DNA of 64,000 nucleotides, from contig CAZKFD010000011.1 in the NCBI GenBank assembly GCA_964551995.1, positions 173,036 through 237,035 of the forward strand, read 5' to 3'. The notes beneath the pieces were generated by a model. The model had not been told where the DNA came from. It ran no database searches and saw only the letters and a list, made by a program, of their open reading frames with translations. This DNA is from an uncultured Eubacteriales bacterium. Its GTDB lineage: Bacteria; Acidobacteriota; Aminicenantia; Aminicenantales; Saccharicenantaceae. Made by a program: the position numbers and the translations under genes. Numbering within the stretch: position 1 is the first letter of the stretch; each line of letters begins with the position of its first letter. This document shows positions 1,360-23,451 of this stretch, piece after piece.

Positions 1360-2039
1360 TTGCCGGGGATGCCGTAGACTTCGACCTCCACATAATGGTT
1401 CATGTCGTTCGAGGTGTTGCCGCGGCTGTAGAGCCGGACATACCGCGCCCGGACGCCGCGGGCGTCAATGAGCTTCCCCTCGTAGGTTTCGATGTATTCC
1501 TTGTCCCGGCCGACGCCGAGGCCCGAGGTGTTGTCGGAGTCGTTGTTGAAGAGCGTCGTCACGCCCTGGACGAAGTCCTTGTCGTCGGACACCTGGACGA
1601 TGACGTCCCGGTACACCCGGGCCTGACTGTGATAATGCCAGACGACGATCGCGTAGAGGGTGTCCGGCTGACCGAGGTCAATCTGGACCCACTGAAGGCC
1701 AGGCCCCAGCTCCACGTAGTAGCCGTCTTCTCCGGATTTCTGGCCGTCAGTGACGAACGAGAGGTCGCCGATGACAGGTTCCATGTCGCTTGCAGTGACG
1801 GGCTTGCCGCGCGAGAGCAGGACCGTGCCGACGGGGACGAGGAACGGGCCGCGGGGACGGCCGGTGATCGGCTCCAAGTTGGGGGTCCGGATGTTCCTCG
1901 GAGTTCCGATGAACATCGGCTTGGGGAGCTCGATCTTCAGGACCTCCTTGCCTTTCTCCTGCCGGGCCGAGCCGGGAGACGGGAGAATGAGGGCCAGTCC
2001 GAGGACGGCGACGGAGGCCAGGATGAGCGTTCGTTTCAT
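1356..2039 (-). CDS. secreted discoidin (F5/8 type C, galactose-binding-like) domain protein
   Basis: This is the 241 aa ORF 1356..2081. The internal start MKRTLILASVAVLGLALILPSPGSA gives a signal peptide, and a GGAGGAG RBS precedes the ATG at 2039. The C-terminal YVRLYSRGNTSNDMNHYVEVEVYG is typical of a discoidin fold. Confidence 0.6.
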   Translation of the reverse strand: MKRTLILASVAVLGLALILPSPGSARQEKGKEVLKIELPKPMFIGTPRNIRTPNLEPITGRPRGPFLVPVGTVLLSRGKPVTASDMEPVIGDLSFVTDGQKSGEDGYYVELGPGLQWVQIDLGQPDTLYAIVVWHYHSQARVYRDVIVQVSDDKDFVQGVTTLFNNDSDNTSGLGVGRDKEYIETYEGKLIDARGVRARYVRLYSRGNTSNDMNHYVEVEVYGIPGK

Positions 2040-2061
2040 AACAGTCTCCTCCTCTGCGTGC

Positions 2062-3118: not shown

Positions 3119-6100
3119 TTACGGCGTCGAGGGCTTTTCGCCGAGCGGCAGCTCCTGGATGGAGTCCGGCGCGGCGTTGACCCGGGCGGCGACCTGGCCG
3201 ATGCCTCCGGCGTCCTTGCCGCTGACGAAGTGGACGTCGAGCAGGCCCTCGGCGCGGAAGCCGGTTCTCAGGTAGTTCATCTCGGCCAGGGACACGCTCC
3301 AGCCCTGGAGCCAGGCCTCGAGTTCGCGCCGCTGCTGGGCGGTGCCCTGGAAGCGGACGGCCAGCTTGATGGGGCTGCCCGTGCTGACGACGCCGGACTT
3401 CGGTTCGCCGAACACGTAGAGGGCCTTGACGCCCCAGCGCTCGGCGTCGCAATGGAGGGCGATTTGGGCGGCCATGTGAAGCCGCCAGTGGGCGTGCCCG
3501 CTGTCGTCCCGGTACTTCGCCGCCTGCTCCGGCTCGAGCGCGGCCCGCATCGAGGCCCCCGGCTCTGTAAACATGCCCACGGCCAGCTCCCTGTCGCCGT
3601 TCATCAAAATCCGCAGGACTTTGCCTCCCGTGGCCTCGGGGACGTCGATGACGCGGAGGGATTCGGCGAGGCCGGCGAATTCGGGGAGGAACTCGGCGAG
3701 CCGGTTCGGCGAGGACAGAAAAAAGCTCTCGTTGAATCTCACGCCGGCGTCGTCCGGGTAGAGAGGCAAGTAGCGGATGCCTGATTCGACGAGGTCCTGG
3801 AAAAAGTGCGTTCCGAAGGACACGTCGGGGACGTAGTTGCCCTTCTTGCGGGCGACTTCGATGAGCATCGCGGTATTGCTGATGTCCGAGTAGGTCACGC
3901 GGACGCCGAGCTTGATGTCGCCACGGCTTCCCCACCGCCCGGGGCCGATCAGAACGAACTGCCGGTTGGGCAGGATCTGGTTGAGCCTCCCGACGGCCAG
4001 CCCGACCGCGGCCAGCTCCGTCAGCCCCGGAATTTCGCCGTACTTTTCCGGGTCGACATAGACGATGTGGGTAATGTCGGCCACCTGGCCGTTCGAGACG
4101 TAGCGCCGGGCCGTGAAGAGGATCGTGTCGTCGGGTATGCCGGCCGGGATTTCCATCGGGAGGTCCTCGACCGCGTAGCTCTGGGGCCGGCACTGCAGGA
4201 GGTAGAAGTCCTTTCCGTCGGAGGCGAACTCGATATCGACAGGGACGCCGAGAGCCGTCTCCAGGGTCTTGAGGATGGCCTCGAGCTGGCCCATGAAGGG
4301 ACTGGCGGAGATGAGGCCGTCGAAAGTGACCACGGCGTCCACCTTCGCGAAATCCGTGGCCAGGCCCATGGGGCGCTGGAGGACCCCGTCATGGAAGAGC
4401 GAGATGACCTTGTTGAGGGCCGGGTATTCGGGTCCGGACTCCCTGAGCAGGTCCTTGATATCTTTGGTCTCGAAACAGTTGTTCTCCAGGTTGATGACGT
4501 CGATCTTCTTGGGCGAATAGCGGATGACCTCGTCGATCGAGACGTTCACGCGGAGGTTCGGACGCCCCGGCGCCACCATGATGGGGTAGTCGTCGCTGAC
4601 CCTGTCCACGGCCCGGGTGCCGAGCCCGGGGACGAGGCGGAGAAGGCCGTCCTCGCGCCGGATCCGCGGCGACCAGCGGAACTCGTTCCGGCTGAAGGCG
4701 ACCCCGGCGTAGGCCGGAAGGTAATAGTGCCCGACCTGCCGGCCGACGACCTCCTGGATCATGATCCCCATTTCCTCGTAATAATCGAGCAGCCCCCGTT
4801 CGGCCCTGTACTGGATGGGGTCGGGGCTGAAGATCGAGGCGTAGACCTCGGCCACGGCGTCAAGCAGGGCGTCGAGCCGCTCCTTCTTGCTGCCCTGATT
4901 GGCCAGGAAGAGGCTCTTGTATTTCCCGGCGAAGGCAGTCCCGAGCCGGTCCTCGAGGAGGCTCGAGCTGCGGACGATGAGCGGGACGTCCCCGAAATCG
5001 TCCAGAGCGAGCGACAGCCCTTTCACGATCTCCTGCGGGAAGGAGCAGGTCTTGAAGACGTGGACGATGTGCGGGTATTCCTGGCGGACCTCCTCGATAT
5101 CCTTGTATTTCTGCTCGATGACCTCGTCGAGGTCGTTGTGCTGGACGAAGGCCATGATGGCGTCGGAGGTAATGTACCACGTCTTCGGCGTCTTGACCTC
5201 GCCGACCTCCTGGAGGCGGCGCGCGGCCTGCTTGAGGATGCGGCTGGCGAGGAACAGCCCGGCGCTCTTGCCCCCGAGCTTCCCGTGGCTGCCCTCGGGG
5301 AAGATGATGCGTTCCATGAGGTCGAAGAAATCCTCGGGCTCGACGTACTTCTTGGCGATGTTGATGAACTCGAGCTGTTCGGTGAAGAAGCGCCGGATCA
5401 GGGCCACGCGGACGCTGTTGGACGTGGCCCGGGGCAGCTGGATCCCCTCGGGGATGAGCCGCCGGTAGCGCTGGATCGATTCCAGGACCTCGTTGAGCGG
5501 GGCGTACACGTCTTCCAGCGTCTTAACCGAGGCGCTCGAGCGGTCCTCGTTCATCCATTTCTGGATGCGGGACATGATCTCCTCGTCCGTCAGGTTGTCC
5601 GAGGCGATCTTGAAGGTTTCCTCGCTGAGCTTGACGAACCATTCCACGCTTCCCCGCTCCTGCGGAACATTCGATTCCCCGAATACACCCTCGGCCTCCT
5701 GCTCCTCTCCGATGCGCTGCAGGAGCGCCCGGGCCTCGCTCACGCCGCGCCATCCGAGGTAGTTCATCATCTTGCGCGAGACGCGGATGAACAGGTTCTG
5801 GTCGGAGTTGCGGAGCAGGTCCAGGGTGATGCGCCAAGCTGGCCTGTCGCGGCCCGGGCCGCGGCGCTCGTCGGCCATCTCGTCGAACATCCGGCGGAGC
5901 CTCTGATGAAGAATGAACTGGCCGATGCGGTCGGCGATCGTCTGGACGAGCTTGACCTCGCCCTTGAGGAAGGGGCCGCACTCGTTCTCCGGAGTCTGGC
6001 GTTTGTAGGATACGCAGAGCCGCCCGGCCGTGGCCTCCTGGACTCGGATGTCGGCGCAGTGGACGTGGGGGGAATCCTCGAAGCCGGGCGATTCGTAGAC

Positions 6101-6313
6101 GTCGTCGCCGCAGGTGATCCGGGCCTGGCAGCATTCGGGATATTGCCACCCGGGCGGGATGGCCTCGAGGATGAGGGGAAGGACTTCTTTGAGAGGCTGG
6201 TCGAAATGACTCAGGATCTCTTCGACCCTGTAGAGACAGTTGAGCTCCTTGGCCCGCTCGTGGAGGCTCGAGAAAAGCGTGTTGACAGCCGTCGGCGTCC
6301 GTTGGTTCGCCAT
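3119..6313 (-). CDS. large PEP/pyruvate-binding (PPDK/PEP synthase N-terminal ATP-grasp) domain protein
   Basis: The 1064 aa product has VRSSSLLEDRLGTAFAGKYKSLFL and GGKSAGLFLASRIL motifs from the pyruvate phosphate dikinase nucleotide-binding domain. Long N- and C-terminal extensions carry a Cys-rich segment. Confidence 0.7.
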   Translation of the reverse strand: MANQRTPTAVNTLFSSLHERAKELNCLYRVEEILSHFDQPLKEVLPLILEAIPPGWQYPECCQARITCGDDVYESPGFEDSPHVHCADIRVQEATAGRLCVSYKRQTPENECGPFLKGEVKLVQTIADRIGQFILHQRLRRMFDEMADERRGPGRDRPAWRITLDLLRNSDQNLFIRVSRKMMNYLGWRGVSEARALLQRIGEEQEAEGVFGESNVPQERGSVEWFVKLSEETFKIASDNLTDEEIMSRIQKWMNEDRSSASVKTLEDVYAPLNEVLESIQRYRRLIPEGIQLPRATSNSVRVALIRRFFTEQLEFINIAKKYVEPEDFFDLMERIIFPEGSHGKLGGKSAGLFLASRILKQAARRLQEVGEVKTPKTWYITSDAIMAFVQHNDLDEVIEQKYKDIEEVRQEYPHIVHVFKTCSFPQEIVKGLSLALDDFGDVPLIVRSSSLLEDRLGTAFAGKYKSLFLANQGSKKERLDALLDAVAEVYASIFSPDPIQYRAERGLLDYYEEMGIMIQEVVGRQVGHYYLPAYAGVAFSRNEFRWSPRIRREDGLLRLVPGLGTRAVDRVSDDYPIMVAPGRPNLRVNVSIDEVIRYSPKKIDVINLENNCFETKDIKDLLRESGPEYPALNKVISLFHDGVLQRPMGLATDFAKVDAVVTFDGLISASPFMGQLEAILKTLETALGVPVDIEFASDGKDFYLLQCRPQSYAVEDLPMEIPAGIPDDTILFTARRYVSNGQVADITHIVYVDPEKYGEIPGLTELAAVGLAVGRLNQILPNRQFVLIGPGRWGSRGDIKLGVRVTYSDISNTAMLIEVARKKGNYVPDVSFGTHFFQDLVESGIRYLPLYPDDAGVRFNESFFLSSPNRLAEFLPEFAGLAESLRVIDVPEATGGKVLRILMNGDRELAVGMFTEPGASMRAALEPEQAAKYRDDSGHAHWRLHMAAQIALHCDAERWGVKALYVFGEPKSGVVSTGSPIKLAVRFQGTAQQRRELEAWLQGWSVSLAEMNYLRTGFRAEGLLDVHFVSGKDAGGIGQVAARVNAAPDSIQELPLGEKPSTP

Positions 6314-6355
6314 CGCGCCGCGTCCCTCCTTCGCGGCCAGGCCCGCAAGACTATT

Positions 6356-7642
6356 TTAAACCCAGCCGCGATCTTTGCAAGCGTTGGCGACTCGGCTGAC
6401 CGCGATCACATAAGCCGCGTCCCGCATATAGAGCTTCCGGGTCCGGGCGAGCTCGCTCACGGCGAGGAAGGCCGCCGTCATCTTGTGGTCGAGCCGGCTG
6501 AGGACTTCCTCCTTTGGCCAGTAGAAGTTCTGGTTCGACTGAACCTGCTCGAAGTAGCTGCAGGTGACGCCGCCCGCGTTGGCTAGGAAGTCCGGGATAA
6601 CGAAGATGCCCCGGCTCTTGATCACGGCGTCGGCTTCCGGGGTCGTCGGACCGTTGGCGCCCTCGGCGATCACCCTGGCCCGCGGCCCGATCTTCTTCAC
6701 GGTCTCGGCGTTGATCTGGTTCTCGATGGCGGCCGGGATCAGGATATCGACGTCCTGCTCGATCCAGGCGTCGCCCGGCAGGCGCTCGTACCCGAGCTTC
6801 GTGACCTTGGCCTTATCGATGCCGCCGAACTCGTCGGTGATCGCCATGAGCTCCTCGAGGTTGACGCCGCTCTTTTTGACATACGTGTATGAGGTCTTGT
6901 CTTTCTGGTCCCAGCAGGCGACGCAGACGACCTTGCCGCCGAGCTGCGTGTAGAGCTGGATCGCGTACTGGGCGACGTTGCCGAAGCCCTGGACGGCGGC
7001 GACGGTCTTTTCGATCGGCAGCCCGAGCTCCTTGAGCGCCTCGCGGAGCGTGTGGACGAGGCCGTAACCCGTGGCCTCGGTGCGGCCGAGCGAGCCGCCC
7101 ATGCCGACGGGCTTGCCGGTGATGAAGCCGGGGTATTTCGCGCCCCGGATGGCCTCATATTCGTCGAGCATCCACAGCATGTGCTGCGGGTTGGTCATGA
7201 CGTCGGGGGCGGGCACGTCGCTCAGCGGGCCGACGTTCTTCGCGACCTGGCGCACCCAGCCCCGGCAGAGGCGCTCCTGTTCGTGTTCGCTGAGGTTGTG
7301 CGGGTCGCAAATGACGCCCCCCTTCCCGCCGCCGAGCGGGATGTCCACGACGGAACATTTCCAGGTCATCCACATGGACAGCGCCCGGACGGTGTCGATC
7401 GTCTCCTGGGGGTGGAAGCGGATGCCGCCCTTGCAGGGGCCCCGCGCGTCGTTGTGCTGGCAGCGGAAGCCGCGGAAGACGCGGACCGTACCGTCGTCCA
7501 GGCGAACGGGAATGGAGAAATGATACTCACGGAGGGGCTGACGGAGCAGGTCCCTCGTGGGCTGGTCAAGCTCGAGAAGGTCGGCGACGCCGTCGAACTG
7601 CTTCTGGGCCATCTCGAACGGATTGAACCCTTTGGTCGCCAT
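6356..7642 (-). CDS. gdhA: NAD(P)-specific glutamate dehydrogenase
   Basis: The 428 aa product has the KGGIRFHP and GGGKGG motifs and reads as GDH across its full length. Confidence 0.9.
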   Translation of the reverse strand: MATKGFNPFEMAQKQFDGVADLLELDQPTRDLLRQPLREYHFSIPVRLDDGTVRVFRGFRCQHNDARGPCKGGIRFHPQETIDTVRALSMWMTWKCSVVDIPLGGGKGGVICDPHNLSEHEQERLCRGWVRQVAKNVGPLSDVPAPDVMTNPQHMLWMLDEYEAIRGAKYPGFITGKPVGMGGSLGRTEATGYGLVHTLREALKELGLPIEKTVAAVQGFGNVAQYAIQLYTQLGGKVVCVACWDQKDKTSYTYVKKSGVNLEELMAITDEFGGIDKAKVTKLGYERLPGDAWIEQDVDILIPAAIENQINAETVKKIGPRARVIAEGANGPTTPEADAVIKSRGIFVIPDFLANAGGVTCSYFEQVQSNQNFYWPKEEVLSRLDHKMTAAFLAVSELARTRKLYMRDAAYVIAVSRVANACKDRGWV

Positions 7643-8012: not shown

Positions 8013-8525
8013 ATGGAAAATCAGAACTTTCACATTCCTCTCTCTTCCATTCGGGTGTTCTATCTGTTTATCCAGGTCATTTGGGTTGTCAGTGTGATCG
8101 GCATCGGTATCTGGTCCGTCGTTCTGCCAATCGGCTTCTTCGGCACGCCGGACAAGAAGCCGCTCTTTGATCTGGTGACGTGGGCGACTTGCTTCCGTGG
8201 AATGTTCTCAGGCGCTATCTTCTTATGGGTTCTTTATCCTCTCCGGAGCCTTACGTGCACCGTCAATGGAGGAAGGCCTTTCGATATCACGAATCCTTCC
8301 AGGATCCGCAAAATCGCGTTCGGAGTATTCGCCTGGATACCGGTCGGAATTATCGGAGAATACCTGCTGAAGCCCGCTCGCGGACCGATAACATGGGTCG
8401 ATTTTGCTGGAGTCCTTTGGCAAAAGGCCGTGGTGTTTGGCTTTCTGGGGCTCGCCATTCTTATGTTCGCCGAAGTGTTTGATGTCGGAGTCAGGCTCAA
8501 GCAGGACCAGGACCTGACCGTCTGA
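8013..8525 (+). CDS. DUF2975-family 4-TM membrane protein
   Basis: ORF 8001..8525 is re-started at the ATG at 8013 (MENQNFHIPL..), 5 nt after GGAGG. The product is about 170 aa with four hydrophobic segments. It pairs with the downstream XRE regulator as in known DUF2975/YozG cassettes. Confidence 0.6.
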   Translation: MENQNFHIPLSSIRVFYLFIQVIWVVSVIGIGIWSVVLPIGFFGTPDKKPLFDLVTWATCFRGMFSGAIFLWVLYPLRSLTCTVNGGRPFDITNPSRIRKIAFGVFAWIPVGIIGEYLLKPARGPITWVDFAGVLWQKAVVFGFLGLAILMFAEVFDVGVRLKQDQDLTV

Positions 8526-8533
8526 GGTGGGCC

Positions 8534-8743
8534 ATGCCGATCATCGTCAATCTCGACCTCATGATGGCCAAGCGGAAGATGTCGCTGACCGAGCTCTCGG
8601 AGAAGGTGGGCATTACCATGGCCAACCTCTCGATCCTCAAGCAGGGCCACGCGCGAGCCATCCGCTTCTCGACGCTGGAGAGGATCTGCGGGGTCCTCGA
8701 CTGCCAGCCCGGCGATTTGCTGGAGTTCAAAAGAGAAGGGTAG
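8534..8743 (+). CDS. XRE-family (Cro/C1, YozG-like) helix-turn-helix transcriptional regulator
   Basis: The 69 aa product MPIIVNLDLMMAKRKMSLTELSEKVGITMANLSILKQGHARAIRFSTLERICGVLDCQPGDLLEF is a classic small HTH_26 regulator. Confidence 0.75.
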   Translation: MPIIVNLDLMMAKRKMSLTELSEKVGITMANLSILKQGHARAIRFSTLERICGVLDCQPGDLLEFKREG

Positions 8744-8830
8744 GCCGGTGCGAGGATCTCTCTCGCCGACGAAAGAGAAGAGGCCCTTTCGAAAAGGCGC
8801 CCATCCGTGATCAACCGGGAAGCCCGGCCC

Positions 8831-9730
8831 TCAGGACTTCCTGGTGAAGCGCATCACGCAATCCAGACACTCGGGATCCTCGTACTTGATCTCGAGCTTC
8901 CATCCCGCGGCCGCCGCCCGGTCCTGCCAGATCGTCTCGAAGATTCGGCGGTAGTCCTCGAAGGAGATCTGTCCCCTGAGATGCCCCGTCTGCTTATAAA
9001 GCGCAAAGAACTGCGGCTTGATCCGGACCACGGCTTCGCGGTCGGTTAGGCTTTCCAAGGTGACGGGATTGCCCCTCAGCCGGCCTTGTTCCCAGCAGGC
9101 GTACAGGATGAAGGCCCGCCCGGGGGGCACGAAGGGGACCCAGGTCTTGGCTGCCAGGTAGTATCCGGCGCCGTCCTTCAGCAGGCTGGGCAGGAAATCC
9201 TTCCCCTTTTCCTTGGACAAGACGTTGTCGAAATACACCATCTGCGACCAGTAATTCTCTTCGCGCTGCCAGGCCTTCGTCTCCTCTGGCAGGTCGGGGA
9301 ATTCGGAGGCGGGGAACTTGTCAACCTTGTCCAGCCGGATGAAGATATTCTCGACGTGGCGGTAATACCAGTGGCGGCCCTCCTTGAGCAGCGTGAAGCA
9401 AAAGATTCCCTTCGTCTGCTCTCCCGAGGTAAAGGTCACGATGTAGTGGACTTCGTTCCCGACCGGGAAAACCTCGGGATGAGCCCATTCTTTCCAGGTC
9501 CCGTGCGTGTCCTGGATCTGTTTGAAGATCCTGAGTTGCTCCAGGAGAACCTCCTTCGGAAGGCCCTCATAGGGGCGGATCCGGTCGAGGGTGATCTTCC
9601 CGTTTTTCACCGCCATGACAAATTCCTTCCAAATGGCCAGGTCATCCTGCCCTTGGGCGGAGAAGACGGCCGGCAGGGCCAGGAGGGCTAGAAAAGCGAT
9701 GGCCGCCGCCGGGCCTCTCATTTTGACCAT
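8831..9730 (-). CDS. secreted hypothetical protein
   Basis: The 299 aa product has signal peptide MVKMRGPAAAIAFLALLALPAVFSAQG and a GGAGGTG RBS. No family is recognised. Confidence 0.5.
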   Translation of the reverse strand: MVKMRGPAAAIAFLALLALPAVFSAQGQDDLAIWKEFVMAVKNGKITLDRIRPYEGLPKEVLLEQLRIFKQIQDTHGTWKEWAHPEVFPVGNEVHYIVTFTSGEQTKGIFCFTLLKEGRHWYYRHVENIFIRLDKVDKFPASEFPDLPEETKAWQREENYWSQMVYFDNVLSKEKGKDFLPSLLKDGAGYYLAAKTWVPFVPPGRAFILYACWEQGRLRGNPVTLESLTDREAVVRIKPQFFALYKQTGHLRGQISFEDYRRIFETIWQDRAAAAGWKLEIKYEDPECLDCVMRFTRKS

Positions 9731-9926
9731 GTGACACCTCCGCGCCGTTACCTGCAGAACCGGTGAGCGACAGTTGAACCGAGGCTGATTTTATCCGAAC
9801 GCCGTCGGCAAGACAATCTTCGTGGGAATATCGGAATCGTGTCTTTTCGGTTCGTGCATGGTTATCGGCGATCGCCCAAGCAAGGAAGCGCTCGGGATCC
9901 CTAGTGGCTTTTCTTCGGATGGGCCG

Positions 9927-10625
9927 TCAGTCTGCGGAGCGCGGTGCGAAGAGCTCGAGGTCGGCGAAGGCGATGGCCGCGACGAGCGTAACGAGCCCGC
10001 TCCACCGGTGCCATTCGAGGAGCACGATCTGCCCCTGGTAGTGGAACCAGGGGAGCATTGGCAGGAGGGCCGAAACGGCCGCCGATGCGCCCGCGATGAG
10101 GAAGATCCAGAAGAACACTTTGGCCCAATCCCTCGGCCCCCAGGGAATCCGGAAACGCCGTGCGCTTTCCATGTTGCCGGGAAGGGCGAGCGGACTCGGG
10201 TTGAACATGAAGCGCCGCGCCCTCAAGAAGGCCACGAGCGTCAGGCAGACGGCGAAGACGGCTCCGGCCACGACATGAAGAAGCAGGGGATAGCCGTAGA
10301 GCCCGCGCCGGATGAAGATGGCGAAGAAGAATCCGCTGGCCGTGAGATAGAGAAAACTCACGTAAAGGCTGGCCAACAACCATTTTTCAGCGGCCGGAAG
10401 CCGCCAGAGTCCAAATCCCTTGAGCCAGGCCGCCCACCCGCCGGGAGCGGGTTTGACCAGAGTTTCGGGGATTCTCCGGGCTAGCCATCGCCTGAAGTCC
10501 CGGAAGACCGCCGCGTAGAGAATGCTCCCTTCGGCTGAAGGATGACGGATGCGGTAACGGCGGAAAGCCAATGCAAGCCCCGTCGCCAGCAAGGTCAGGA
10601 CCGTGACGGCGGCGAACATGATCAT
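9927..10625 (-). CDS. 5-TM integral membrane protein, possible b-type cytochrome/anchor for the adjacent multiheme cytochrome
   Basis: The 232 aa product has five hydrophobic helices. His residues lie in or near helices (LLLHVV, WFHYQ, EWHRW). It overlaps the cytochrome c gene by 4 bp. Confidence 0.5.
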   Translation of the reverse strand: MIMFAAVTVLTLLATGLALAFRRYRIRHPSAEGSILYAAVFRDFRRWLARRIPETLVKPAPGGWAAWLKGFGLWRLPAAEKWLLASLYVSFLYLTASGFFFAIFIRRGLYGYPLLLHVVAGAVFAVCLTLVAFLRARRFMFNPSPLALPGNMESARRFRIPWGPRDWAKVFFWIFLIAGASAAVSALLPMLPWFHYQGQIVLLEWHRWSGLVTLVAAIAFADLELFAPRSAD

Positions 10626-12994
10626 GGCCTCTTTTCGATGAGCCCGGCCAGTCTCCCGGCGATGACGACGAGGAACGCCAAAAGCAGGAGGCCGACGGCG
10701 AGGATCGCCGCGCCCAAGACGATCTTGAAAAGGGGCCTCACGGCGAACGTCAGACCGAAGATCCTTTGGAACACGCCTCCGACGCCCATCAACGAGGTCG
10801 TAGACCGTGTTTCGAACTTGTCCGTCAGGAGCGGCCCTGTGCCTTTGATAGTCTTGAAGAAGAATTTTGAGTCCGCGGTGTGGCAGTCGGTGCAGCCGTT
10901 CCAGCCCAAGGATTGTTCGACGGGGCGCACGTTATGGGCCAGCGACCACATGATCGGAGCGGCGAACGCCGCGGTCCCGGACGTCAGCTTCCCCGCCTTG
11001 TTCAGGCGGAACGTCCGTCCTCCGGAAACGTACACGAAGTCGGCCGCATCACCCCGCTGCGGCTCCTTCGCCTGCGTTTCCACGGCCCGAAGCGCTGCGA
11101 GGACGAGCCCGACCTGCTCTTCCGTCAGGGTCTGCTCGGTTCCCGCCTTGGCCGTTACCGCCCGGAGGTCGAAGTCCGACGCCAGGGGTTCGATCCTGCG
11201 TTCCTTGAGCCAGCCCGCGCCCGGCTTCGCCTGGAGAGCGGCCGGAGCATCGCTCGGGTTGAGATATCCGTCCACGATCTGATACAGCGTCTTTCTGACG
11301 ATGATGGCCGGGCGCCCCGGCGCGCCTTTGACCGTTCCCAACGCCTGGAGGATGCTCTGGAGCCTGGGCGCGATCTCCGGGTCCTTGTCCGGCGAGGCCG
11401 GATCGAAATCGGGGACGAGCGGCGAGAGGCCGAAGCTCTTTTTGATGGCCCAAAAGGCGGGGGGCGCTGGCGTGCCGCCGGCCTTTGCCGCACCCGCGGC
11501 CGGAGAGGCGTCGAGCCCGCCGTCCACATTGACGTCAAAGACCCATCCCCCGGAGACAAGGACGGGGACCTCGGTCTCGCCGCAAGCCTGAGTCAGGGCG
11601 GAGAGGACCTGTGTGATCCTGTCCTCGCACTTGAGAAGGTCGCCGGCTGCGGCCTCGACGGCCTCGGGCTTGAGCGGGACGACCGACTTCCCCTCCTCCC
11701 GCGCCCAGAAGGCCGGCCAGGCCAGCCGTTGCGGCGTGATCCTCCCTCGGGCGTCCCTTGCATAGACCGGTTCGATGATGGCTGGCTCATCCGTCCACCA
11801 CCGGGCGACGCCGTAGATGCCGAGCCGGTTAGCACGCGACGTCCGGACGCGCATCCATTGCTTGGACGGCATCGGACCCGAGTGGCACACGGGGCACGAC
11901 AGCGTCTTGAAGTGGATGAGCGGGATTCCCGTGTGCTTTGGGACGGGGGCGCCCAGGCGGCCGGGCGTGACGAGCTTCCGGCCGCTCGAATCTTCGCCCA
12001 GATGGCAGCCGCGGCAGGTGAACGAGTCCGCCGCCCGGTTCCCGGTTTCCTCGGCTTCGCCCTCGTAGCCCCGGATCATGCCGTGCCCCAGGTCGTTCCT
12101 GTGGCATTCGGCGCACGCGATGCCCCTGGCCGTGTGGACGTCCGCCGCCGCCTCGGCCCGCGTGTCCGTCACCGGTGAGACCGAATGACAGACCAGGCAG
12201 TTCCTGTCGCCGGGGGGATAGGCGATGTCGAGGAAATAGCGGTGCTTGCTGTCGAAGTCGGACGCCTTGTAAGTGACGAACGGTGCCACGGCCCATTCGT
12301 GGTCATCGAGGTTGGGGCCGTCGTAGACGCTCCAGGTTTCATGGAGGCGCGAGGCCATCCCCCCGACCTCGCCGACGCCGGACGCAGCCGTCGCCGCCCA
12401 ACGGAAGTTCTGCCGGAGCATCTGCTTGGCCCACTCGCTGTTGTCCTGGCGGCCGGATCTGTTGTGACAGGCCAGGCAGTTGATCTCGGCCTTCCCGGAG
12501 ACGTTCCAGCGGGAGTCGGGGCCCGGCGCGACGTCCCCCTCGTCCGGCTCCGCCGGTCCTCCGCCCGGCATGTGCCGGCCGAAGAGCATAGTGAAATCCC
12601 AGGCGTCGAGCCCGACCGTCCTCGGATCCCAAGATCCCGGCCATTTCCGGTAGGAAACGGGCAGGATCGTTCCGGTTTTCGCGTCGAGCCAGATCCACGG
12701 CTCGCCGGGCCGTCCGTTTTTCTCCGAGCGCATGGCGTTCCAGTGCCAGCCGGCCTGGATCGTTTTATAGTCATGACACGGGCCGCAGGTGGTGCGAACG
12801 GAGAAGGGCATGGCATCCCGGTCGTCGGGGGTGATCAGCTGGTTTATGTCGTCGCGGAGCGGAATGAGGTGCGTCGGCGTCGTCCGATTCCCGTCCCAGG
12901 GCGCCGGCTTTTCGTCCTGGGCACCGGCCGCGCTCCAGAGGCCGATAACGAGCAAGCCCAGGGCCGCCGCGCCGAACCGTCCGGCGGCTCTCAT
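10622..12994 (-). CDS. heptaheme c-type cytochrome with signal peptide and C-terminal TM anchor
   Basis: Seven CxxCH motifs are present (CGPCH, CLACH, CLVCH, CAECH, CRGCH, CPVCH, CTDCH). An internal start MRAAGRFGAAALGLLVIGLWSAAGAQ at 12994 overlaps the upstream stop (ATGA). The C-terminal hydrophobic helix is LFKIVLGAAILAVGLLLLAFLVVIAG. Confidence 0.8.
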   Translation of the reverse strand: MRAAGRFGAAALGLLVIGLWSAAGAQDEKPAPWDGNRTTPTHLIPLRDDINQLITPDDRDAMPFSVRTTCGPCHDYKTIQAGWHWNAMRSEKNGRPGEPWIWLDAKTGTILPVSYRKWPGSWDPRTVGLDAWDFTMLFGRHMPGGGPAEPDEGDVAPGPDSRWNVSGKAEINCLACHNRSGRQDNSEWAKQMLRQNFRWAATAASGVGEVGGMASRLHETWSVYDGPNLDDHEWAVAPFVTYKASDFDSKHRYFLDIAYPPGDRNCLVCHSVSPVTDTRAEAAADVHTARGIACAECHRNDLGHGMIRGYEGEAEETGNRAADSFTCRGCHLGEDSSGRKLVTPGRLGAPVPKHTGIPLIHFKTLSCPVCHSGPMPSKQWMRVRTSRANRLGIYGVARWWTDEPAIIEPVYARDARGRITPQRLAWPAFWAREEGKSVVPLKPEAVEAAAGDLLKCEDRITQVLSALTQACGETEVPVLVSGGWVFDVNVDGGLDASPAAGAAKAGGTPAPPAFWAIKKSFGLSPLVPDFDPASPDKDPEIAPRLQSILQALGTVKGAPGRPAIIVRKTLYQIVDGYLNPSDAPAALQAKPGAGWLKERRIEPLASDFDLRAVTAKAGTEQTLTEEQVGLVLAALRAVETQAKEPQRGDAADFVYVSGGRTFRLNKAGKLTSGTAAFAAPIMWSLAHNVRPVEQSLGWNGCTDCHTADSKFFFKTIKGTGPLLTDKFETRSTTSLMGVGGVFQRIFGLTFAVRPLFKIVLGAAILAVGLLLLAFLVVIAGRLAGLIEKRP

Positions 12995-14364
12995 GCTTTG
13001 AACTGCTCCGGACGGAATTCCAGCAGTCTCCGGGCCTTGACGGCGTCGTTGGTGTTGAGGACGGCGACGCAGGATTCGAAGGCGAGATCGGCCGGGCAGC
13101 TCAACGGCGTGCCCAGCCGGACGGCGTCGAAGAAGTTCTCGAGGTGCGGCTGGTGCGCGGGCTTGGCCAACTCGACCGGCAGATTCCAACGCCCAGCCTC
13201 CTGGGTCATCCGGACGTCGACGAAGATGTTCTTTGAAGTGCTCTTCTGGATCGGGGCGGACTCGGATTCGAGGAGCCCGGCCTTGGCCAAAGAGTCCCAT
13301 TCCGGCGCCGTGGGCTCTCGCATCGCCCAGTTCCCCTTGGACGGGATTTCGGACAGGACGATCGATCCGTTGTCTCCCATGAACGTCTCGTAGAAACCGC
13401 CATGCTGGGTGGTCGTCTGGACCTGATAGAAGGCGCGGGAGATGCCCCCCGGCCTCTCAAATTCGTAGACGGCCATGACGTTGTCATACCACTGCCAATC
13501 TTTGTAATAGTCCATGCCGCCGCTGGCGACGACCGACCGGGGGTTCGCGCCAAAGACCCAGCTGAAGAGGTCGATTTGGTGCGAGCCGAGGTCGACCATG
13601 GGGCCGCCGCCGTATTTTTTGAACAGGCGCCAGTTCCGGAATTCGGTCATCGAGCCGTAGCCGTACTTGTTGAGCGTGGCCGCGTCGATCGTGTATTTCT
13701 CGGGCCATCCGAGGAGCTCGCTCTTGGCCCGGTTCCACTGGGAGTAGGCGGCGGTGACCAGGCCGAGAAGCCTGTGCTCCCGGATAAGGCGGTCGATGGC
13801 GTGGATGTAGCGGGGATTGGAGCGGCGCTGATGGCCGATCTGAAGGAGCTTGCCGGTTTCCCGGGCCGTGAGGACCATCGAGCGGGCCTTCTCCAGAGAA
13901 TTCGCCATCTCCTTTTCGCAGTAGACGTGGAGCCTGGCCCTGAGGCAGGCGTTGGCGTGATCGGCGTGCATCCAGTCGGGCGTCGCGATGACGACGGCCT
14001 GGAGGTCCTTCTCCTTGGCCAGGAGGTCGCGGAAGTCTTCGTAGACCCGGACGTCCTGCCCGTATTTTTTGAGGTAGTTGTGGGTGTAGGTCTGGCTGTA
14101 GCTCCAGATGTCGCAGATCGCGAGGATCCGGATGGCCGGAATGCGGAGGATGGATTCGATGAGGACCCGGCCCTGGGCGCCGCAGCCGATAACGGCAATG
14201 CGGAGCTCCTTGGGATTCTTCTCCGCGGCCGCCTTCACCCGGGGCGTTTGGGAGAGCGCTTTTCCGGCGAGCGCCAGGCTGAGGCCCGCCGCGGCCGAGG
14301 TCTTGAGGAAGTCCCGGCGCGACAGGCCGTCCTTCGCGTCCGGGCGTTTCGTCTTCGTGTGCAT
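12991..14364 (-). CDS. TAT-exported Gfo/Idh/MocA family oxidoreductase
   Basis: The twin-arginine signal is SRRDFLKTSAAAGLSLALAG. The Rossmann motif is IAVIGCGAQG. An AGGAG RBS precedes the start. Confidence 0.85.
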   Translation of the reverse strand: MHTKTKRPDAKDGLSRRDFLKTSAAAGLSLALAGKALSQTPRVKAAAEKNPKELRIAVIGCGAQGRVLIESILRIPAIRILAICDIWSYSQTYTHNYLKKYGQDVRVYEDFRDLLAKEKDLQAVVIATPDWMHADHANACLRARLHVYCEKEMANSLEKARSMVLTARETGKLLQIGHQRRSNPRYIHAIDRLIREHRLLGLVTAAYSQWNRAKSELLGWPEKYTIDAATLNKYGYGSMTEFRNWRLFKKYGGGPMVDLGSHQIDLFSWVFGANPRSVVASGGMDYYKDWQWYDNVMAVYEFERPGGISRAFYQVQTTTQHGGFYETFMGDNGSIVLSEIPSKGNWAMREPTAPEWDSLAKAGLLESESAPIQKSTSKNIFVDVRMTQEAGRWNLPVELAKPAHQPHLENFFDAVRLGTPLSCPADLAFESCVAVLNTNDAVKARRLLEFRPEQFKA

Positions 14365-14685
14365 AAAACGACTCCTGGCTCCGTCGAGTCCAGCCCATCA
14401 TACTACAAAACCGAGCGGCAAAAAAAGCCCGCGAGAGGCCGGAAAAAACCTGCCCGTCGCGCCTCCTGCCCTCATGTCCGCGGCCGGGGCGCGCCCTCAA
14501 TCATCTCAGGCGCAGGGACCGGTCACCTTTTCTATAAGCGGTGGACGCGGGTCCTCTGGGCCTGGCTTCGCCGGCTTCCGTTTTTCTCCGTGATAGGGTA
14601 TTATATAAAGAGCGCGGAAAGGGTCGGGCTGGCGGTTTTAAGAGAAGTTTGGCTGTTTTGAAAAGCATGTATTGTGAGGACGGCG

Positions 14686-16758
14686 ATGCGAACAAAATGG
14701 CTCTGTTGGCTCGGTTCGACCCTGATCATCCTATCGGCTTTGAGCTGCGGCGGTAGCAGTAGCAGCCCGACTCCGACCCCCACTCCCACCCCTCCGAGCG
14801 TGACGGTCAGCCCGGAGACGGCGACGCTGTCCCCGGGCGCGGCCCAGCAGTTCACGGCCACGATCGCGAACGCGACGGACCAGACGGTCAGCTGGGAAGT
14901 CAACAACGTCCAGGGCGGGAGCGCGACCTACGGACTGATCTCTGAAGGCGGCGTGTACATCGCCCCGACGAACATCTCGGGCTTGTCCAGCGTGACGGTG
15001 ACGGCCGTCTCCTTCGATGACCCCACGAAGACAGGGACCGCCACGGTGACCTTCCAATCGGGTTCGAGCGTCAAAGTGGTCATCGCCGCGAACGGAGCTC
15101 CCATCCCGGTCCTGACGTTCGGGTCGTACACCCTCTCCGCGACGGTCAGCGGGACTACCAATACGGCCCTCACCTGGCAGGTCAACGGCGTCACCGGAGG
15201 CGGCTCGACGACGGGCACGGTCACCCAGGCGGGGGTCTATTATGCGCCCCATTCGGTGCCGGTTTCCACGGCGGCGAACAACGACGGCCAGACGACCGAC
15301 GTGATTTTGACGGCGATTTCCCAGGCGGACACCACGGCCTCGGATTCGGTGATCGTCGTCCCGACCCCCCCGCAGACGTCGCGCTTCCCGCTGCCGGTCC
15401 CGCTCGGGACGTCCGGCGGAAATGCGCATGACTTGTCGACCTCCGGGAATTACACGTTCTGCTGCGGCGGGACCATCGGGTCGCTCGTGTCCCGGGGCGG
15501 TCAGCTGTACATCCTGAGCTGCAACCACGTCTTGGCCCGGAGCGACGCGGCCTCGATCGGCGACGCGATCATCCAGCCGGGGCTTATCGACAACAACTGC
15601 GCCGTTGCCGGCACGAACACGGTCGCGAACCTGTCGCAGTTCTTCAATCTGGAGACGGGCGCCCTGCCGAACGTGGATGCCGCGATCGCCGAAATCGTGT
15701 CCGGCGCCGTCGAGCCGCTGGGGACCATCCTCGAGCTGGGCGGCACGGCGAGCGGCAGCCAGCCGACCGACGGGACGCCCAATCCCGGACCGGGCGTGAC
15801 ACCCACGGTGGGACGCCCGGTTGCTAAGAGCGGGAGGTCGACGGGCCTGACCTGCTCTCAGATCACCTCCGTCAGCACGTCGATCAGCGTTGAATACCAG
15901 AAAGGATGCAATACGGGCTCGACCTACGACGTGGATTTCGACAATCAAGTCGACGTCAGCGGCGTGGGCTTCAGCGCCTTCGGCGACTCGGGCTCGCTCA
16001 TCGTCACCCAGGACACGTCGGACCCCGTCGGACTGCTCTTCGCCGGCTCCGATACGGACACGGTCGCCAATCCCCTGGACGACGTCCTCTCGCAACTCGC
16101 AGACCCGTCGACGGGGGAGAAGCCTGTTTTTGTCGGAGATTCGACGGTCGGAGCCCATGCCGTCGCCGCCTGCTCGATCCCCCAGCCCACGTCGTCCCTG
16201 GCCGTAATCCTGCAGGGGCAGGCGGCTTTGTCGAATCTCGCCCTGGAGGCCGCCACCGCGGCCCGCGACGCTCATGCCGAAGAGCTGATGACGGCGCACC
16301 CCGAGATCCAGGCTTTGGGCGTGGGCGCGAGCTGCGACAATCCCCGGGAGAGCGCCGTCCTTCTGTTCGTGCCGAAAGGGCCGTCCCATGCGGGTCTTCC
16401 ACCTCTCGTGGGCGGGATCCGCACGCGCATCGTCGAGGTCACCACGAACAGGATATCAGGCTCTCTCTCGGCCGAAGAGAGCTCCATCCTCATTCAGTCG
16501 GTGGCGCTGCCCCCGCTCGCCTACGCCATCTCCGAGGCCGAAGTGGAACGGGCGAAGGCGGTCCAATCGGCTCACCGGGATGCCCTGATGCGCCAGCACG
16601 GCGTCCAGGGCGTCGGCGTGACGTCGAGCCTGGATTCCCCAGGCGAGGCAGCGTTGATGATTTTCGTCATCCGCGGGGTCGCGCACGACCCGATCCCGCC
16701 GGTCATCGACGGCCTGCGGACCCGGATCCGCGAAACAAGCCGCTTCCGGGCCCGCTAG
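14686..16758 (+). CDS. secreted (lipoprotein-like) S1 family trypsin-like serine protease with PT linker and Ig-like domains
   Basis: The signal/lipobox-like LIILSALSCGG is followed by a (PT)n linker. CGGTIGS..LSCNHVLAR carries the catalytic His and GDSGSLIV the catalytic Ser. The ATG at 14686 follows a GAGGA RBS. Confidence 0.7.
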   Translation: MRTKWLCWLGSTLIILSALSCGGSSSSPTPTPTPTPPSVTVSPETATLSPGAAQQFTATIANATDQTVSWEVNNVQGGSATYGLISEGGVYIAPTNISGLSSVTVTAVSFDDPTKTGTATVTFQSGSSVKVVIAANGAPIPVLTFGSYTLSATVSGTTNTALTWQVNGVTGGGSTTGTVTQAGVYYAPHSVPVSTAANNDGQTTDVILTAISQADTTASDSVIVVPTPPQTSRFPLPVPLGTSGGNAHDLSTSGNYTFCCGGTIGSLVSRGGQLYILSCNHVLARSDAASIGDAIIQPGLIDNNCAVAGTNTVANLSQFFNLETGALPNVDAAIAEIVSGAVEPLGTILELGGTASGSQPTDGTPNPGPGVTPTVGRPVAKSGRSTGLTCSQITSVSTSISVEYQKGCNTGSTYDVDFDNQVDVSGVGFSAFGDSGSLIVTQDTSDPVGLLFAGSDTDTVANPLDDVLSQLADPSTGEKPVFVGDSTVGAHAVAACSIPQPTSSLAVILQGQAALSNLALEAATAARDAHAEELMTAHPEIQALGVGASCDNPRESAVLLFVPKGPSHAGLPPLVGGIRTRIVEVTTNRISGSLSAEESSILIQSVALPPLAYAISEAEVERAKAVQSAHRDALMRQHGVQGVGVTSSLDSPGEAALMIFVIRGVAHDPIPPVIDGLRTRIRETSRFRAR

Positions 16759-16793: not shown

Positions 16794-17783
16794 CTATTTC
16801 TTCATATCCTTGTCGAAAGCGACCAGGGAAGGCGAGAAGTTCATCCGGCGGACGAACTCGAGCGATTCCGCCGCGCCGAGCTCGCGGTCCATGGCGTTGT
16901 CCTCCCACTCGACCGAAAGCGGGCCTTCGTAGCCGATGGCGTTGAGCTCGCGGATGATGCCCTCGAAATCGACGTCGCCGTGCCCGAGAGACCGAAAGTT
17001 CCAGCCCCGGCGGACGTCGCCGAAGGCGAGGAAGGAGCCGAGGATCCCGGCCTTGCCGTCGAGCGTCACGGCCACGTCCTTCATGTGGACGTGGTAGACG
17101 CGGTCGGCGAACTCGCGGATAAAGAGAGGCGGCTCAAGGCCCTGCCAGACGAGGTGGCTGGGATCGAAGTTGAGGCCGAGGGTGAGCCTGCGGTTGAACG
17201 TCTCGAAGAGGCGGCAGGTCGTGTAGAGGTCGAAGGCGATCTCCGTCGGATGAACCTCGAGGGCGAATTTGACGCCTTGCTTGTCGAATTCGTCGAAGAT
17301 GGGCGTCCAGAGGTCGCGGATCTTTGCGTAGCCGGCCGCCACCATTTCCTCGGTCGTCGCCGGGAATGAGTACCAAGCCTTCCAGACGGGCGAGCCCATG
17401 AAGCCGTTGACGACGTAGCATCCCATGACTCGAGCCGCCCGGGCTACGGCCTTCATCTCCTCGACGGCCCACTTGCGGAGGGCGTCGGGCTTGCCGCGGA
17501 CCGCGGCCGGCGCGAAACCGTCGAGCCGGGGGTCGTATTCGTCGCCGACGCATTGGCCGGCGAGGTGGGCGCCGAACGCCCAGCACTTGAGACCGTACTT
17601 CTTAAGGACCCGCTTCTTCTCCCGGACATAGGCGGCGCTCGAGGCCGCTTTGCGGACGTCCATGTGATCGCCCCAGCAGGCGATCTCCAGGCCGTCGTAG
17701 CCCCAGCCGGAAGCCTTCTTGCAGATCTCCTCGAACGGCAGGTCGGCCCACTGGCCGGTGAACAGCGTGACAGGTCGTGCCAT
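16794..17783 (-). CDS. sugar phosphate isomerase/epimerase (xylose isomerase-like TIM barrel)
   Basis: The 329 aa product shows AP endonuclease 2 / xylose-isomerase-like fold features. A perfect AAGGAGG RBS precedes the start. Confidence 0.85.
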   Translation of the reverse strand: MARPVTLFTGQWADLPFEEICKKASGWGYDGLEIACWGDHMDVRKAASSAAYVREKKRVLKKYGLKCWAFGAHLAGQCVGDEYDPRLDGFAPAAVRGKPDALRKWAVEEMKAVARAARVMGCYVVNGFMGSPVWKAWYSFPATTEEMVAAGYAKIRDLWTPIFDEFDKQGVKFALEVHPTEIAFDLYTTCRLFETFNRRLTLGLNFDPSHLVWQGLEPPLFIREFADRVYHVHMKDVAVTLDGKAGILGSFLAFGDVRRGWNFRSLGHGDVDFEGIIRELNAIGYEGPLSVEWEDNAMDRELGAAESLEFVRRMNFSPSLVAFDKDMKK

Positions 17784-17798
17784 AATCGTTTCCTCCTT

Positions 17799-18974
17799 TT
17801 ATTCCATGCGGACCCAGGCGGCCCCTTCAGCTGAGCTTTCGACGCACTTCTCGATGAAGCAGACGCCGCGGACGCCGTCCTCGGCCCCTGGAAAATCGAG
17901 ATCATCGGCCGCAAGCGCTTCGCCCCGGAGCTTCTTGGCCAGGGCCGGAATAAAGGTCGAGTAGGTGTTGGCGAAGGCCTCGAAGTAGCCTTCGGGGTGC
18001 CCGGACGGGATGCGTGACAGGCTCTGGGCCCTGGGGGACATCGGGTCGCGGCCGCGCGACAGCATCGCCGTCGGCCGGTCCAGGCACGAGACGCGGGCGT
18101 TGTTCGGGAACTCTTGGAACCATTCGACCGCCCCCTCGACGCCGTAAATCCGGAGACGCAGGGCGTTGTCGTGGCCGATGGCAATTTGGGAGCTCCAGTA
18201 CACGCCCTTGGCCCCGCCCCGGTAGTTCACCATGATCGTGGCGTTGTCCTCGAGCGGCCGCCCGGCGCCGAAACGGTCGAGCCGGGCGCAGAGCGACTCA
18301 ATTCGCAGGCCGGTCATATAGCCTGCCATGAATTCGATGTGGCTGCCGATGTCGCCGACGCAGTTGGAGATGCCGGCGACCTTGGGGTTCGTCCGCGAGA
18401 GGGCCTGCTTCTGGCCCGTGTCCTCGAGTTTCGTTGCCAGCCATTCCTGGGGATACTCGGCGTTGATGAAGCGGATCGCGCCGATATCCCCTGAGGCGAT
18501 CATGTCCCGGATGTGCTTGACCATGGGGTAGCCTGCGTAGGCGTAGGTCACGCAGAACAACAGGCCCTTTTCCTTGGCGAGGCGGGCCAGGTGCGCCGCG
18601 TCCTCGGAGCTCGTCGCCAGCGGCTTTTCGCAGACGACGGGGAAGCCGTGCTCGAGGGCGGCCCGTGCGGCGGGGTAATGGGCGTTGTTTGTCGTGACGA
18701 CGACGATGAAGTTGGGCCGGTCGTCGCGCTTCGCCTCCGTGCGGATCATTTCCTCGAACGTGTGATAGAGGCGTTCTTTCGGGAGGTCCAACAGCCCTCC
18801 CGTGACCAGGGTGTTTTCATAAGATTGGGAGAAGCAGCCGCAGACGATGTCTGCCTTCCCGTCCATGGCGATGGCCTTGCGGTGGACGTCGCCGATGAAC
18901 GCCCCCTGGCCGCCTCCGATCATGCCGTAGCGAAGCTTCGGGGTCTTGGCTCCCGACGCCTGTCCTTCGATCAT
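17799..18974 (-). CDS. Gfo/Idh/MocA family oxidoreductase (cytoplasmic)
   Basis: The 391 aa product has the Rossmann motif YGMIGGGQGAFIG and the conserved EKP motif. It has no signal peptide. Confidence 0.85.
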   Translation of the reverse strand: MIEGQASGAKTPKLRYGMIGGGQGAFIGDVHRKAIAMDGKADIVCGCFSQSYENTLVTGGLLDLPKERLYHTFEEMIRTEAKRDDRPNFIVVVTTNNAHYPAARAALEHGFPVVCEKPLATSSEDAAHLARLAKEKGLLFCVTYAYAGYPMVKHIRDMIASGDIGAIRFINAEYPQEWLATKLEDTGQKQALSRTNPKVAGISNCVGDIGSHIEFMAGYMTGLRIESLCARLDRFGAGRPLEDNATIMVNYRGGAKGVYWSSQIAIGHDNALRLRIYGVEGAVEWFQEFPNNARVSCLDRPTAMLSRGRDPMSPRAQSLSRIPSGHPEGYFEAFANTYSTFIPALAKKLRGEALAADDLDFPGAEDGVRGVCFIEKCVESSAEGAAWVRME

Positions 18975-23435: not shown

Positions 23436-23451
23436 GCCGGTACTCTCTCCC

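Follow-up and report, generated by a model that had tools for sequence, protein, structure and literature searches.

How is the nicotinamide cofactor of a periplasmic sugar dehydrogenase re-oxidised when it stays bound to the enzyme? The question is raised by three adjoining genes in a 64,000-nucleotide stretch of DNA, below called the window, from an uncultured Eubacteriales bacterium (GTDB lineage Bacteria; Acidobacteriota; Aminicenantia; Aminicenantales; Saccharicenantaceae; assembly GCA_964551995.1, contig CAZKFD010000011.1, positions 173,036 to 237,035 of the forward strand). Positions 14364-9927 of the window are filled by three open reading frames (ORFs) on the minus strand. In order they encode an oxidoreductase of the Gfo/Idh/MocA family (Gfo) with a twin-arginine translocation (TAT) signal, a heptahaem c-type cytochrome and a membrane protein, and they are here called the trio. 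An earlier note made from the sequence, below the original prediction, had proposed that the trio oxidises sugars or polyols in the periplasm and feeds the respiratory chain.

The clusters BT2156-2159 of Bacteroides and AL1-AL4 of Alistipes encode a Tat-exported Gfo enzyme with tightly bound NAD that oxidises glycosides at C3 in the periplasm (PMC8121099; 10.1101/2024.03.25.586180). Its oxidant in vivo was not identified by the authors; one paper proposed an unidentified sugar, and the other 3-keto-glucose or "specialized proteins, such as cytochromes", without evidence (PMC8121099; 10.1101/2024.03.25.586180). The trio is a concrete candidate for the oxidant that these papers left open. No description of it was found in literature searches. 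As argued below, we lean towards the view that the trio forms a single membrane-anchored periplasmic glycoside dehydrogenase complex, in which bound NAD(P)H would give up its electrons through haems c and haem b to quinone.

Components of the trio

The first gene (12991-14364, minus strand) encodes a protein of 457 amino acids, the proposed catalytic subunit, which is recognised by its Pfam scores and conserved motifs. The domains PF01408, PF22725 and PF02894 score 67.3, 49 and 46.2 bits, all above their cutoffs of 24, 27 and 22.9. In 113 orthologues the motifs GxGxxG (GCGAQG), VYCEKEM and DLGSHQID (within GGPxxDLGSHQID) are at least 95% conserved, and the acidic residue after strand 2, D85 (DIW), is also kept in this alignment. 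The nicotinamide-binding and catalytic machinery thus looks intact. The core of a twin-arginine signal, consisting of SRRDFLK and an h-region, is found at residues 14-33 (14266-14325, minus strand). It scores 25.2 against a cutoff of 22.7 with Pfam TAT_signal (PF10518) and 28.2 against 16.7 bits with TIGR01409, and RRxF[LIVMA] is retained in 108 of 112 orthologues. The ORF uses the earliest start codon available in its frame, and a Shine-Dalgarno-like AGGAG can be read from the sequence 8 nucleotides 5' of the ATG (14372-14376, minus strand). Both the family assignment and the reading of RRxFLK as a TAT signal in the original prediction are therefore borne out. From its sequence the protein is predicted to be exported by Tat and to carry a bound NAD(P) cofactor.

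The nearest relatives with solved structures are DgpA (a C-glycoside 3-oxidoreductase), anhydrofructose reductase (AFR) and Zymomonas GFOR, in each case over the N-terminal half only. The best match in NCBIfam is NF058561, the BT_2158 glycoside 3-dehydrogenase, at 83 bits against a cutoff of 750 and over residues 15-265. Since only the N-terminal half matches and the score is far below the cutoff, the protein was rejected as a member of any NCBIfam equivalog, including the BT_2158 type. Neither a GMC nor an FAD domain was found when the three trio proteins were scanned with Pfam and NCBIfam.

The second gene (10622-12994, minus strand) encodes a cytochrome of 790 amino acids with a Sec-type signal peptide, seen as a predicted N-terminal signal-peptide-like helix, and a C-terminal membrane anchor. 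The seven CxxCH motifs, at C70, C173, C266, C294, C327, C367 and C701, are invariant in close and distant relatives. In an alignment that took in relatives only 36-44% identical, exactly seven further histidines are conserved, namely H42, H84, H287, H304, H354, H361 and H687. The haems are probably all bis-His electron-transfer haems, and the sequence gives no sign of a catalytic haem. A catalytic multihaem enzyme of the NrfA, Otr or HAO type was rejected, since every one of the seven motifs is CxxCH and the conserved histidines left over as distal ligands number exactly seven; any resemblance to NrfA or Otr does not rise above noise. The anchor is a long predicted hydrophobic helix with a basic tail at residues ~752-787 (10634-10741, minus strand), and so the membrane-anchored heptahaem cytochrome of the original prediction is confirmed. 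Between the sixth and the seventh haem lies a confidently predicted non-haem beta/alpha domain (residues ~405-685; 10940-11782, minus strand), which varies in length among relatives and for which no fold relative could be detected.

The cytochrome does not belong to a characterised family. No solved relative was found by sequence in the PDB or by fold, and the Pfam scan gave only weak Cytochrome_C7/MtrC-II-IV matches. The OmcA/MtrC decahaem family was rejected (TIGR03507, 29.5 against a cutoff of 209.3 bits; PF22113, 27.6 against 30), and so were the NapC/NirT/NrfH and NrfB types (PF03264, PF22678), to which the window cytochrome has no match and its relatives have scattered weak ones. An exhaustive profile search at E<=1e-3 gave a family of 883 clusters at 50% identity, whose members have in common an N-terminal domain with six haems, a seventh haem and a tail anchor, while the middle domain varies. 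There are at least 1337 close database relatives, and those few with an organism name are Aminicenantes. In the databases copies of the trio proteins are named "hypothetical protein" or, generically, "cytochrome c3 family".

The third gene (9927-10625, minus strand) encodes a membrane protein of 232 amino acids. Its AlphaFold2 model (pLDDT 85) displays five long helices, as originally proposed, and the top Foldseek matches are FdnI of formate dehydrogenase-N (1kqf_C, prob 1.00, TM 0.49/0.53) and HyaC of hydrogenase-1 (6g94_A, prob 0.99). The statement that the protein has no recognisable family holds for the window copy, which scores 18.7 bits with PF01292 (Ni_hydr_CYTB) against a cutoff of 30.1, but not for the family as a whole: PF01292, and no other family, is matched by 8 of 24 homologues (best E 6.9e-6), and an apparently planctomycete orthologue (L113) passes the cutoff with 39.6 bits. 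A comparison of the membrane-protein profile with the PDB sequences gave nothing, and the hhalign match to E. coli FdnI (prob 1.5%) did not suffice for placing the histidine ligands.

The description of this protein as His-rich was mistaken, as it contains only four histidines in 232 residues. Two of them are conserved, H117 (136 of 139 homologues) and H206 (137 of 139), and W173 is likewise kept in 137 of 139. The four histidine ligands of two b haems are thus not found, and with two conserved histidines a single haem b is expected rather than the two of FdnI. By the positive-inside rule the N-terminus is predicted to be outside and the C-terminus inside, and on a reading of the sequence and the model H117 and H206 would be located in helices 3 and 5, towards the periplasmic side. 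The protein shares the four-helix core and the topology of FdnI and HyaC, with the conserved histidines on core helices 2 and 4, but differs from them in having two histidines instead of four and an extra N-terminal helix. Moreover, FdnI and HyaC have an iron-sulphur subunit as partner, while the partner here is a c-type cytochrome. As judged from the sequence, one haem site appears to have been lost relative to FdnI; going by the ligand positions of FdnI, the retained haem is presumably the one on the periplasmic side. Altogether the membrane protein is probably a divergent cytochrome b of the FdnI/HyaC type (PF01292) with one haem. The b-type subunit that had been raised as a possibility is supported by PF01292 in homologues, the fold, the two near-invariant histidines and natural fusions to the cytochrome, which are described below.

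The genes are closely packed. An ATGA overlap joins the stop codon of the Gfo gene and the start codon of the cytochrome gene (gcATGAgag, 12991-12994, minus strand), and a second one joins the cytochrome and the membrane protein (ccATGAtcatg, 10622-10625, minus strand). In the latter an alternative ATG is found 6 nucleotides downstream. The public copy of the membrane protein starts at this second ATG, two codons later, giving 230 amino acids, and the second overlap thus hinges on the choice of start; in homologous loci a gap of a few nucleotides is usual at this junction. An NTGA stop/start overlap recurs at the Gfo/cytochrome junction in 64 of 127 related loci. Both overlaps named in the original prediction are thus present, the second depending on the start, and the translational coupling that it proposed gains support from the first. 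The G+C content of the trio region is 65%, the same as in the remaining window, so the many long antisense ORFs in the region are to be expected. An Rfam scan of 8500-15000 for regulatory RNAs gave nothing at E<=0.1. A scan for promoters and terminators gave nothing above the shuffle background except a promoter-like site before the gene of a 299-residue protein downstream.

Conservation and gene context of the trio

The conservation of the trio was studied in two sets of loci. A scan of one genome per species gave 79 loci, nearly all from metagenome-assembled genomes of Aminicenantes, together with two from Planctomycetota and one from Solibacteraceae. Wherever the flank allows, a Gfo orthologue (59-86% identity) is found directly upstream of the cytochrome, except in L083, and the membrane protein (28-74% identity) directly downstream, except in L082. 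The genes flanking the trio vary between genomes. A second scan, of metagenomes, was seeded with distant cytochrome relatives and gave 80 loci with cytochromes ~38% identical to that of the window. Here the Gfo orthologue is adjacent in 50 of 58 loci (E 1e-120 to 1e-168, about 48-49% identity) and the membrane protein in 64 of 67, the complete trio being present in 44 of 52. ORF calls in the fetched loci were mechanical, and these adjacency counts are slightly low as frameshifted or masked loci, which were recovered by tblastn in the genome set, were missed. The taxonomy of the metagenome loci was deduced from the source names on homologues of one cytochrome (L142). Sources name its close homologues as Planctomycetota or Sedimentisphaerales, and the distant metagenome loci are apparently from Planctomycetota. 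As judged from these sequences, the trio is conserved across two bacterial phyla, and it has the conservation as a unit that the original prediction had called for.

Four loci carry a natural in-frame fusion, a single ORF that encodes both the cytochrome and the membrane protein's four-helix core (L098, 2212-4602; L102, 5794-8451; L120, 5935-8361; L164, 4590-7007). The fused proteins retain both histidines, and in place of helix 1 of the membrane protein they have the cytochrome's anchor helix. Such fusions argue strongly that the cytochrome and the membrane protein form a functional unit. Cytochromes without an adjacent Gfo are found in L083 (6878-9821), L091, L103, L107, L108, L128, L134 and L155; most of these loci still have the membrane protein next to the cytochrome, while none was detected in L091.

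The genes around the trio in the distant clusters give an indication of the substrate. A layout of seven gene slots recurs, with individual genes absent in some loci. It begins with a TAT-Gfo paralogue and a secreted xylose-isomerase-like TIM barrel that is fused or adjacent to a DUF1080 domain; the Gfo orthologue, the cytochrome and the membrane protein follow, and then a signal-less Gfo of 368 amino acids and an NCS1 or MFS permease. DUF1080 in these clusters is PF06439, "3-keto-disaccharide hydrolase" (E 1e-72), and the DUF1080/TIM-barrel gene lies upstream on the same strand in 27 of 38 distant loci, which supports the sugar oxidation originally proposed. When the cytochrome, the membrane protein and the permease are taken away, the enzyme set of BT2156-2159/AL1-AL4 is left: the secreted xylose-isomerase-like TIM barrel, DUF1080 and the cytoplasmic Gfo are shared with these clusters. 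The glycoside 3-dehydrogenases of Bacteroidota, BT2158 and AL3, are like the catalytic subunit of the trio in being TAT-exported Gfo/Idh/MocA proteins with non-exchangeable NAD, the latter being a prediction for the trio. In contrast to the trio, the Bacteroides and Alistipes clusters encode no cytochrome or membrane subunit.

Two sets of sugar-related genes are found in the window itself, in which the genes for xylose-isomerase-like TIM barrels lie 2.4 and 10.5 kb from the trio. At 16794-18974 (minus strand), 2.4 kb upstream of the trio, a signal-less Gfo that weakly resembles levoglucosan dehydrogenase is encoded together with a TIM barrel that weakly resembles IolE, and this pair could provide the cytoplasmic steps of a keto-sugar pathway. 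At 23452-25776 (minus strand) a second TAT-Gfo (23452-24813) lies beside a TIM barrel (24844-25776) whose TAT signal is weak. Nearby genes encode an SDR protein (22560-23498), a DUF2961 protein (26638-28221) and an alpha-L-fucosidase (30142-31878). The 23452-25776 genes look like a separate periplasmic 3-keto-glycoside module without a cytochrome of its own.

Electron flow and competing explanations

In the complex that we propose, the Gfo subunit would fold and be loaded with NAD(P) in the cytoplasm before it is exported by Tat. In the periplasm it would oxidise a hydroxyl group of a sugar or glycoside, most likely at C3, to give a 3-keto-glycoside. The NAD(P)H, bound to Gfo and non-exchangeable, would then be re-oxidised by the tail-anchored heptahaem cytochrome c, from which the electrons would pass to the one haem b of the FdnI-like subunit, close to the periplasmic surface where H117 and H206 would ligate it, and on to the quinone pool. 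The analysis shows the arrangement of the genes, the export signals, the haem motifs, the fold of the membrane subunit, the conservation of the trio, the fusions and, in the distant loci, the 3-keto-glycoside genes around it. We infer the contact between Gfo and cytochrome, the feeding of hydride electrons into haem, which way the electrons flow, quinone as their acceptor and the nature of the substrate. Flow from NAD(P)H via low-potential haems to menaquinone is downhill, while the reverse is uphill. If the proposal is correct, it would describe a new way of wiring NAD-type periplasmic enzymes to a membrane electron-transport chain and would explain the redox balance of periplasmic 3-keto-glycoside pathways. 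In anaerobes that are widespread in sediments and digesters, it would tie glycan oxidation in the periplasm to electron transport in the membrane, and it would give abundant uncultured organisms regarded as fermentative (Aminicenantes and Planctomycetota-like bacteria) a respiratory outlet for this oxidation. Two large families of hypothetical proteins, the tail-anchored seven-haem cytochrome and the single-haem FdnI-like subunit, would be defined, and a new scaffold would be available for direct-electron-transfer sugar dehydrogenases as used in biosensors. With hundreds of natural variants and the natural fusions at hand, the question of the oxidant is directly testable.

Several known systems resemble the trio in part. 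The lactose 3-dehydrogenase LacABC, the glucoside 3-dehydrogenase of Agrobacterium and the fructose dehydrogenase of Gluconobacter are, like the proposed complex, periplasmic, membrane-bound multi-subunit enzymes; their catalytic part depends on Tat, and they deliver electrons to the respiratory chain through a multihaem cytochrome c subunit. In proteobacteria, LacABC performs the chemistry of the BT2156-2159/AL1-AL4 pathway; it is described as cytochrome c-dependent and membrane-bound, and is also linked to DUF1080. These enzymes, however, have an FAD-dependent GMC catalytic subunit, a small Tat "hitch-hiker" subunit and a three-haem cytochrome, while the trio has a nicotinamide-type Rossmann enzyme, an unrelated seven-haem tail-anchored cytochrome and a separate cytochrome b subunit. 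Zymomonas GFOR is a TAT-exported member of the Gfo family with tightly bound NADP and a periplasmic sugar substrate, but its cofactor is regenerated by a second sugar, and it lacks partners for electron transfer. The similarity of the window Gfo to it is limited (E 2e-13 over residues 100-206). In the inner membrane of Geobacter, CbcL, CbcBA and ImcH pair a multihaem c domain, by coupling or fusion, with a HydC/FdnI-like b-type membrane domain. Their role is quinol oxidation in extracellular electron transfer, and they have no linked dehydrogenase; none of the searches made detected a sequence relationship between them and the trio. The trio would work like the flavoprotein-cytochrome c sugar dehydrogenases and the FdnI-anchored dehydrogenases, but is a member of neither group, as it has a nicotinamide-type Rossmann catalytic subunit, a cytochrome of an uncharacterised family and a b subunit that is short of one haem site.

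Some observations weigh against the proposed complex. The putative contact between Gfo and cytochrome is suggested by gene linkage. In L083 and some 8 of the 58 metagenome loci no Gfo adjoins the cytochrome and membrane protein, and the c/b pair may therefore also serve other partners. Haems take single electrons, NAD(P)H is a poor one-electron donor and the known paths from NAD(P)H to cytochromes use flavin, while no flavin is evident in the three proteins. The quinone site is putative, with one haem b instead of two. Aminicenantes are mostly viewed as fermenters, and a terminal reductase was not seen in the window. Furthermore, DUF1080 is found upstream in none of 57 Aminicenantes loci, and the substrate in the window organism is less certain for that reason.

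The cytochromes that lack a neighbouring Gfo also speak for a different explanation, in which the c/b pair serves the periplasm as a general electron hub, such as a quinol oxidase that supplies periplasmic or extracellular acceptors in the manner of CbcL, CbcBA and ImcH. Gfo would then merely be co-transcribed with it and recycle its NAD(P) with a keto-sugar in a ping-pong manner, as in GFOR and BT2158, bypassing the haems. A hub would fit the size of the cytochrome family and its variable middle domain, and the recycling would fit the finding that enzymes of the BT2158/AL3 type are recycled by 3-keto-sugars in vitro and that the search for a flavinylation motif described below revealed no flavin mediator. 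Against this, no other protein of the trio is as well conserved as Gfo (in distant loci it is about 48-49% identical to the window protein, compared with ~38% for the cytochrome), and it is adjacent not only in most distant loci but in all Aminicenantes loci with room for it. Half of the Gfo/cytochrome junctions have the 4-nucleotide stop/start overlap, and in the mapped clusters the c/b pair lies inside the sugar cluster, directly after a TAT-Gfo. Given this close and ancient linkage, a general hub is considered unlikely. It is very improbable that the electrons run in the opposite direction, with quinol being oxidised by the b subunit and Gfo acting as a periplasmic reductase of a keto-sugar or similar compound, in the service of fermentative anaerobes in need of an electron sink. 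Going by record titles and source names, the carriers of the trio appear to be anaerobes of sediments and digesters, tail-anchored multihaem and cytochrome b modules such as NrfH, CymA and CbcL are often quinol oxidases, and Gfo-family enzymes such as GFOR and AFR are reversible. But the step from menaquinol (~-74 mV) to NAD(P)+ (~-320 mV) is strongly uphill, and the neighbouring DUF1080 and TIM-barrel enzymes need 3-keto-glycosides, which are the products of a prior oxidation.

A third possibility leaves the proposed complex as it is but adds a mediator, either a flavin that the linked ApbE-type transferase has installed at a non-canonical site of a cluster protein or a small redox molecule, which would split the hydride into single electrons. 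An ApbE-family flavin transferase is encoded 7 kb downstream of the trio on the same strand (2062-3054; PF02424, 133 bits). Homologues of it lie near the trio on the same strand in 50 loci of the genome and metagenome sets, and in one Aminicenantes clade ApbE follows immediately after the membrane protein. The window ApbE has no obvious signal peptide and could thus act on a Tat substrate before export. Its linkage is looser than that within the trio (24 of 56 and 7 of 23 loci with 6 kb of downstream sequence), and it travels most tightly with two other genes that may form a separate module. One of these (1356-2081, minus strand) encodes a highly conserved, secreted F5/8-type-C-like protein of 241 amino acids with weak PF00754/PF22633 matches. 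Orthologues of it (E 1e-70 to 1e-130) are found in 55 trio loci of both sets, in all but one on the same strand and downstream. The other (1-1360, minus strand), which is cut by the window edge, encodes a GT-C membrane protein of the TIGR03663 ("Agl23")/PMT_2 type, assigned by hidden Markov model (HMM) match: an HMM built from the metagenome-locus copies matches the window at 1-1464 (minus strand; E 1.2e-145), and a representative copy scores 197.6 with TIGR03663 against a cutoff of 126. All three genes are loosely linked candidate accessories, lying 7-9 kb downstream of the trio in the window (1-3054). The set travels with the trio on the same strand in Aminicenantes, in the Planctomycetota-like metagenome loci and in the single Solibacteraceae locus.

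The flavinylation motif [S/T]GA[S/T], as defined in PMC8238504, is found in at most 6% of the members of the Gfo, cytochrome, membrane protein, F5/8C, GT-C and DUF1080 families, which also speaks against the proposed complex. As none of the conserved cluster proteins has a conserved motif, the flavin idea stays a lead and not a finding, and a hidden mediator of this kind is regarded as improbable. With regard to the cofactor itself, we put forward as a tentative but reasonable possibility that the nicotinamide of the Tat-exported Gfo is re-oxidised by a dedicated pair of heptahaem cytochrome c and cytochrome b, directly or via a flavin, possibly one installed by ApbE.

Other genes in the window

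As to the GT-C gene, it may be mentioned that GT2 and GT39 genes have been reported on the fosmid with the 3-keto-glycoside genes of Alistipes (10.1101/2024.03.25.586180). The distance of 7 kb between the trio and the ApbE and F5/8C genes in the window is due to local synteny: a glutamate dehydrogenase and a PPDK_N-type protein of 1064 amino acids are encoded after the trio (3119-7642, minus strand), and the same order is found in L003, a distant Aminicenantes contig. Directly downstream of the trio (8831-9730, minus strand) lies the gene of the 299-residue protein, which has a signal peptide and is preceded by the promoter-like site (9816-9788). Pfam and NCBIfam scans gave no family match for it, and it was rejected as a component of the trio since tblastn matches near the cytochrome were found only in two Aminicenantes loci (L005 and L006).

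On the other side of the trio a divergent gene (14674-16758, plus strand) encodes a secreted protein of 694 amino acids with Big_2/Ig-like repeats and a weak match to Nal1_C, which is protease-like. It is not conserved beside the trio in the two other genomes compared (L001 and L003). Further away, at 42010-51264 (minus strand), a cluster encodes NuoF-like FMN/iron-sulphur, [FeFe]-hydrogenase-like and NuoG/molybdopterin-type proteins and a pyridine-nucleotide-disulphide oxidoreductase, as well as small proteins with DRTGG and HATPase_c domains. It looks like an NAD(P)H-linked hydrogenase/formate dehydrogenase complex, which is consistent with an anaerobic lifestyle.

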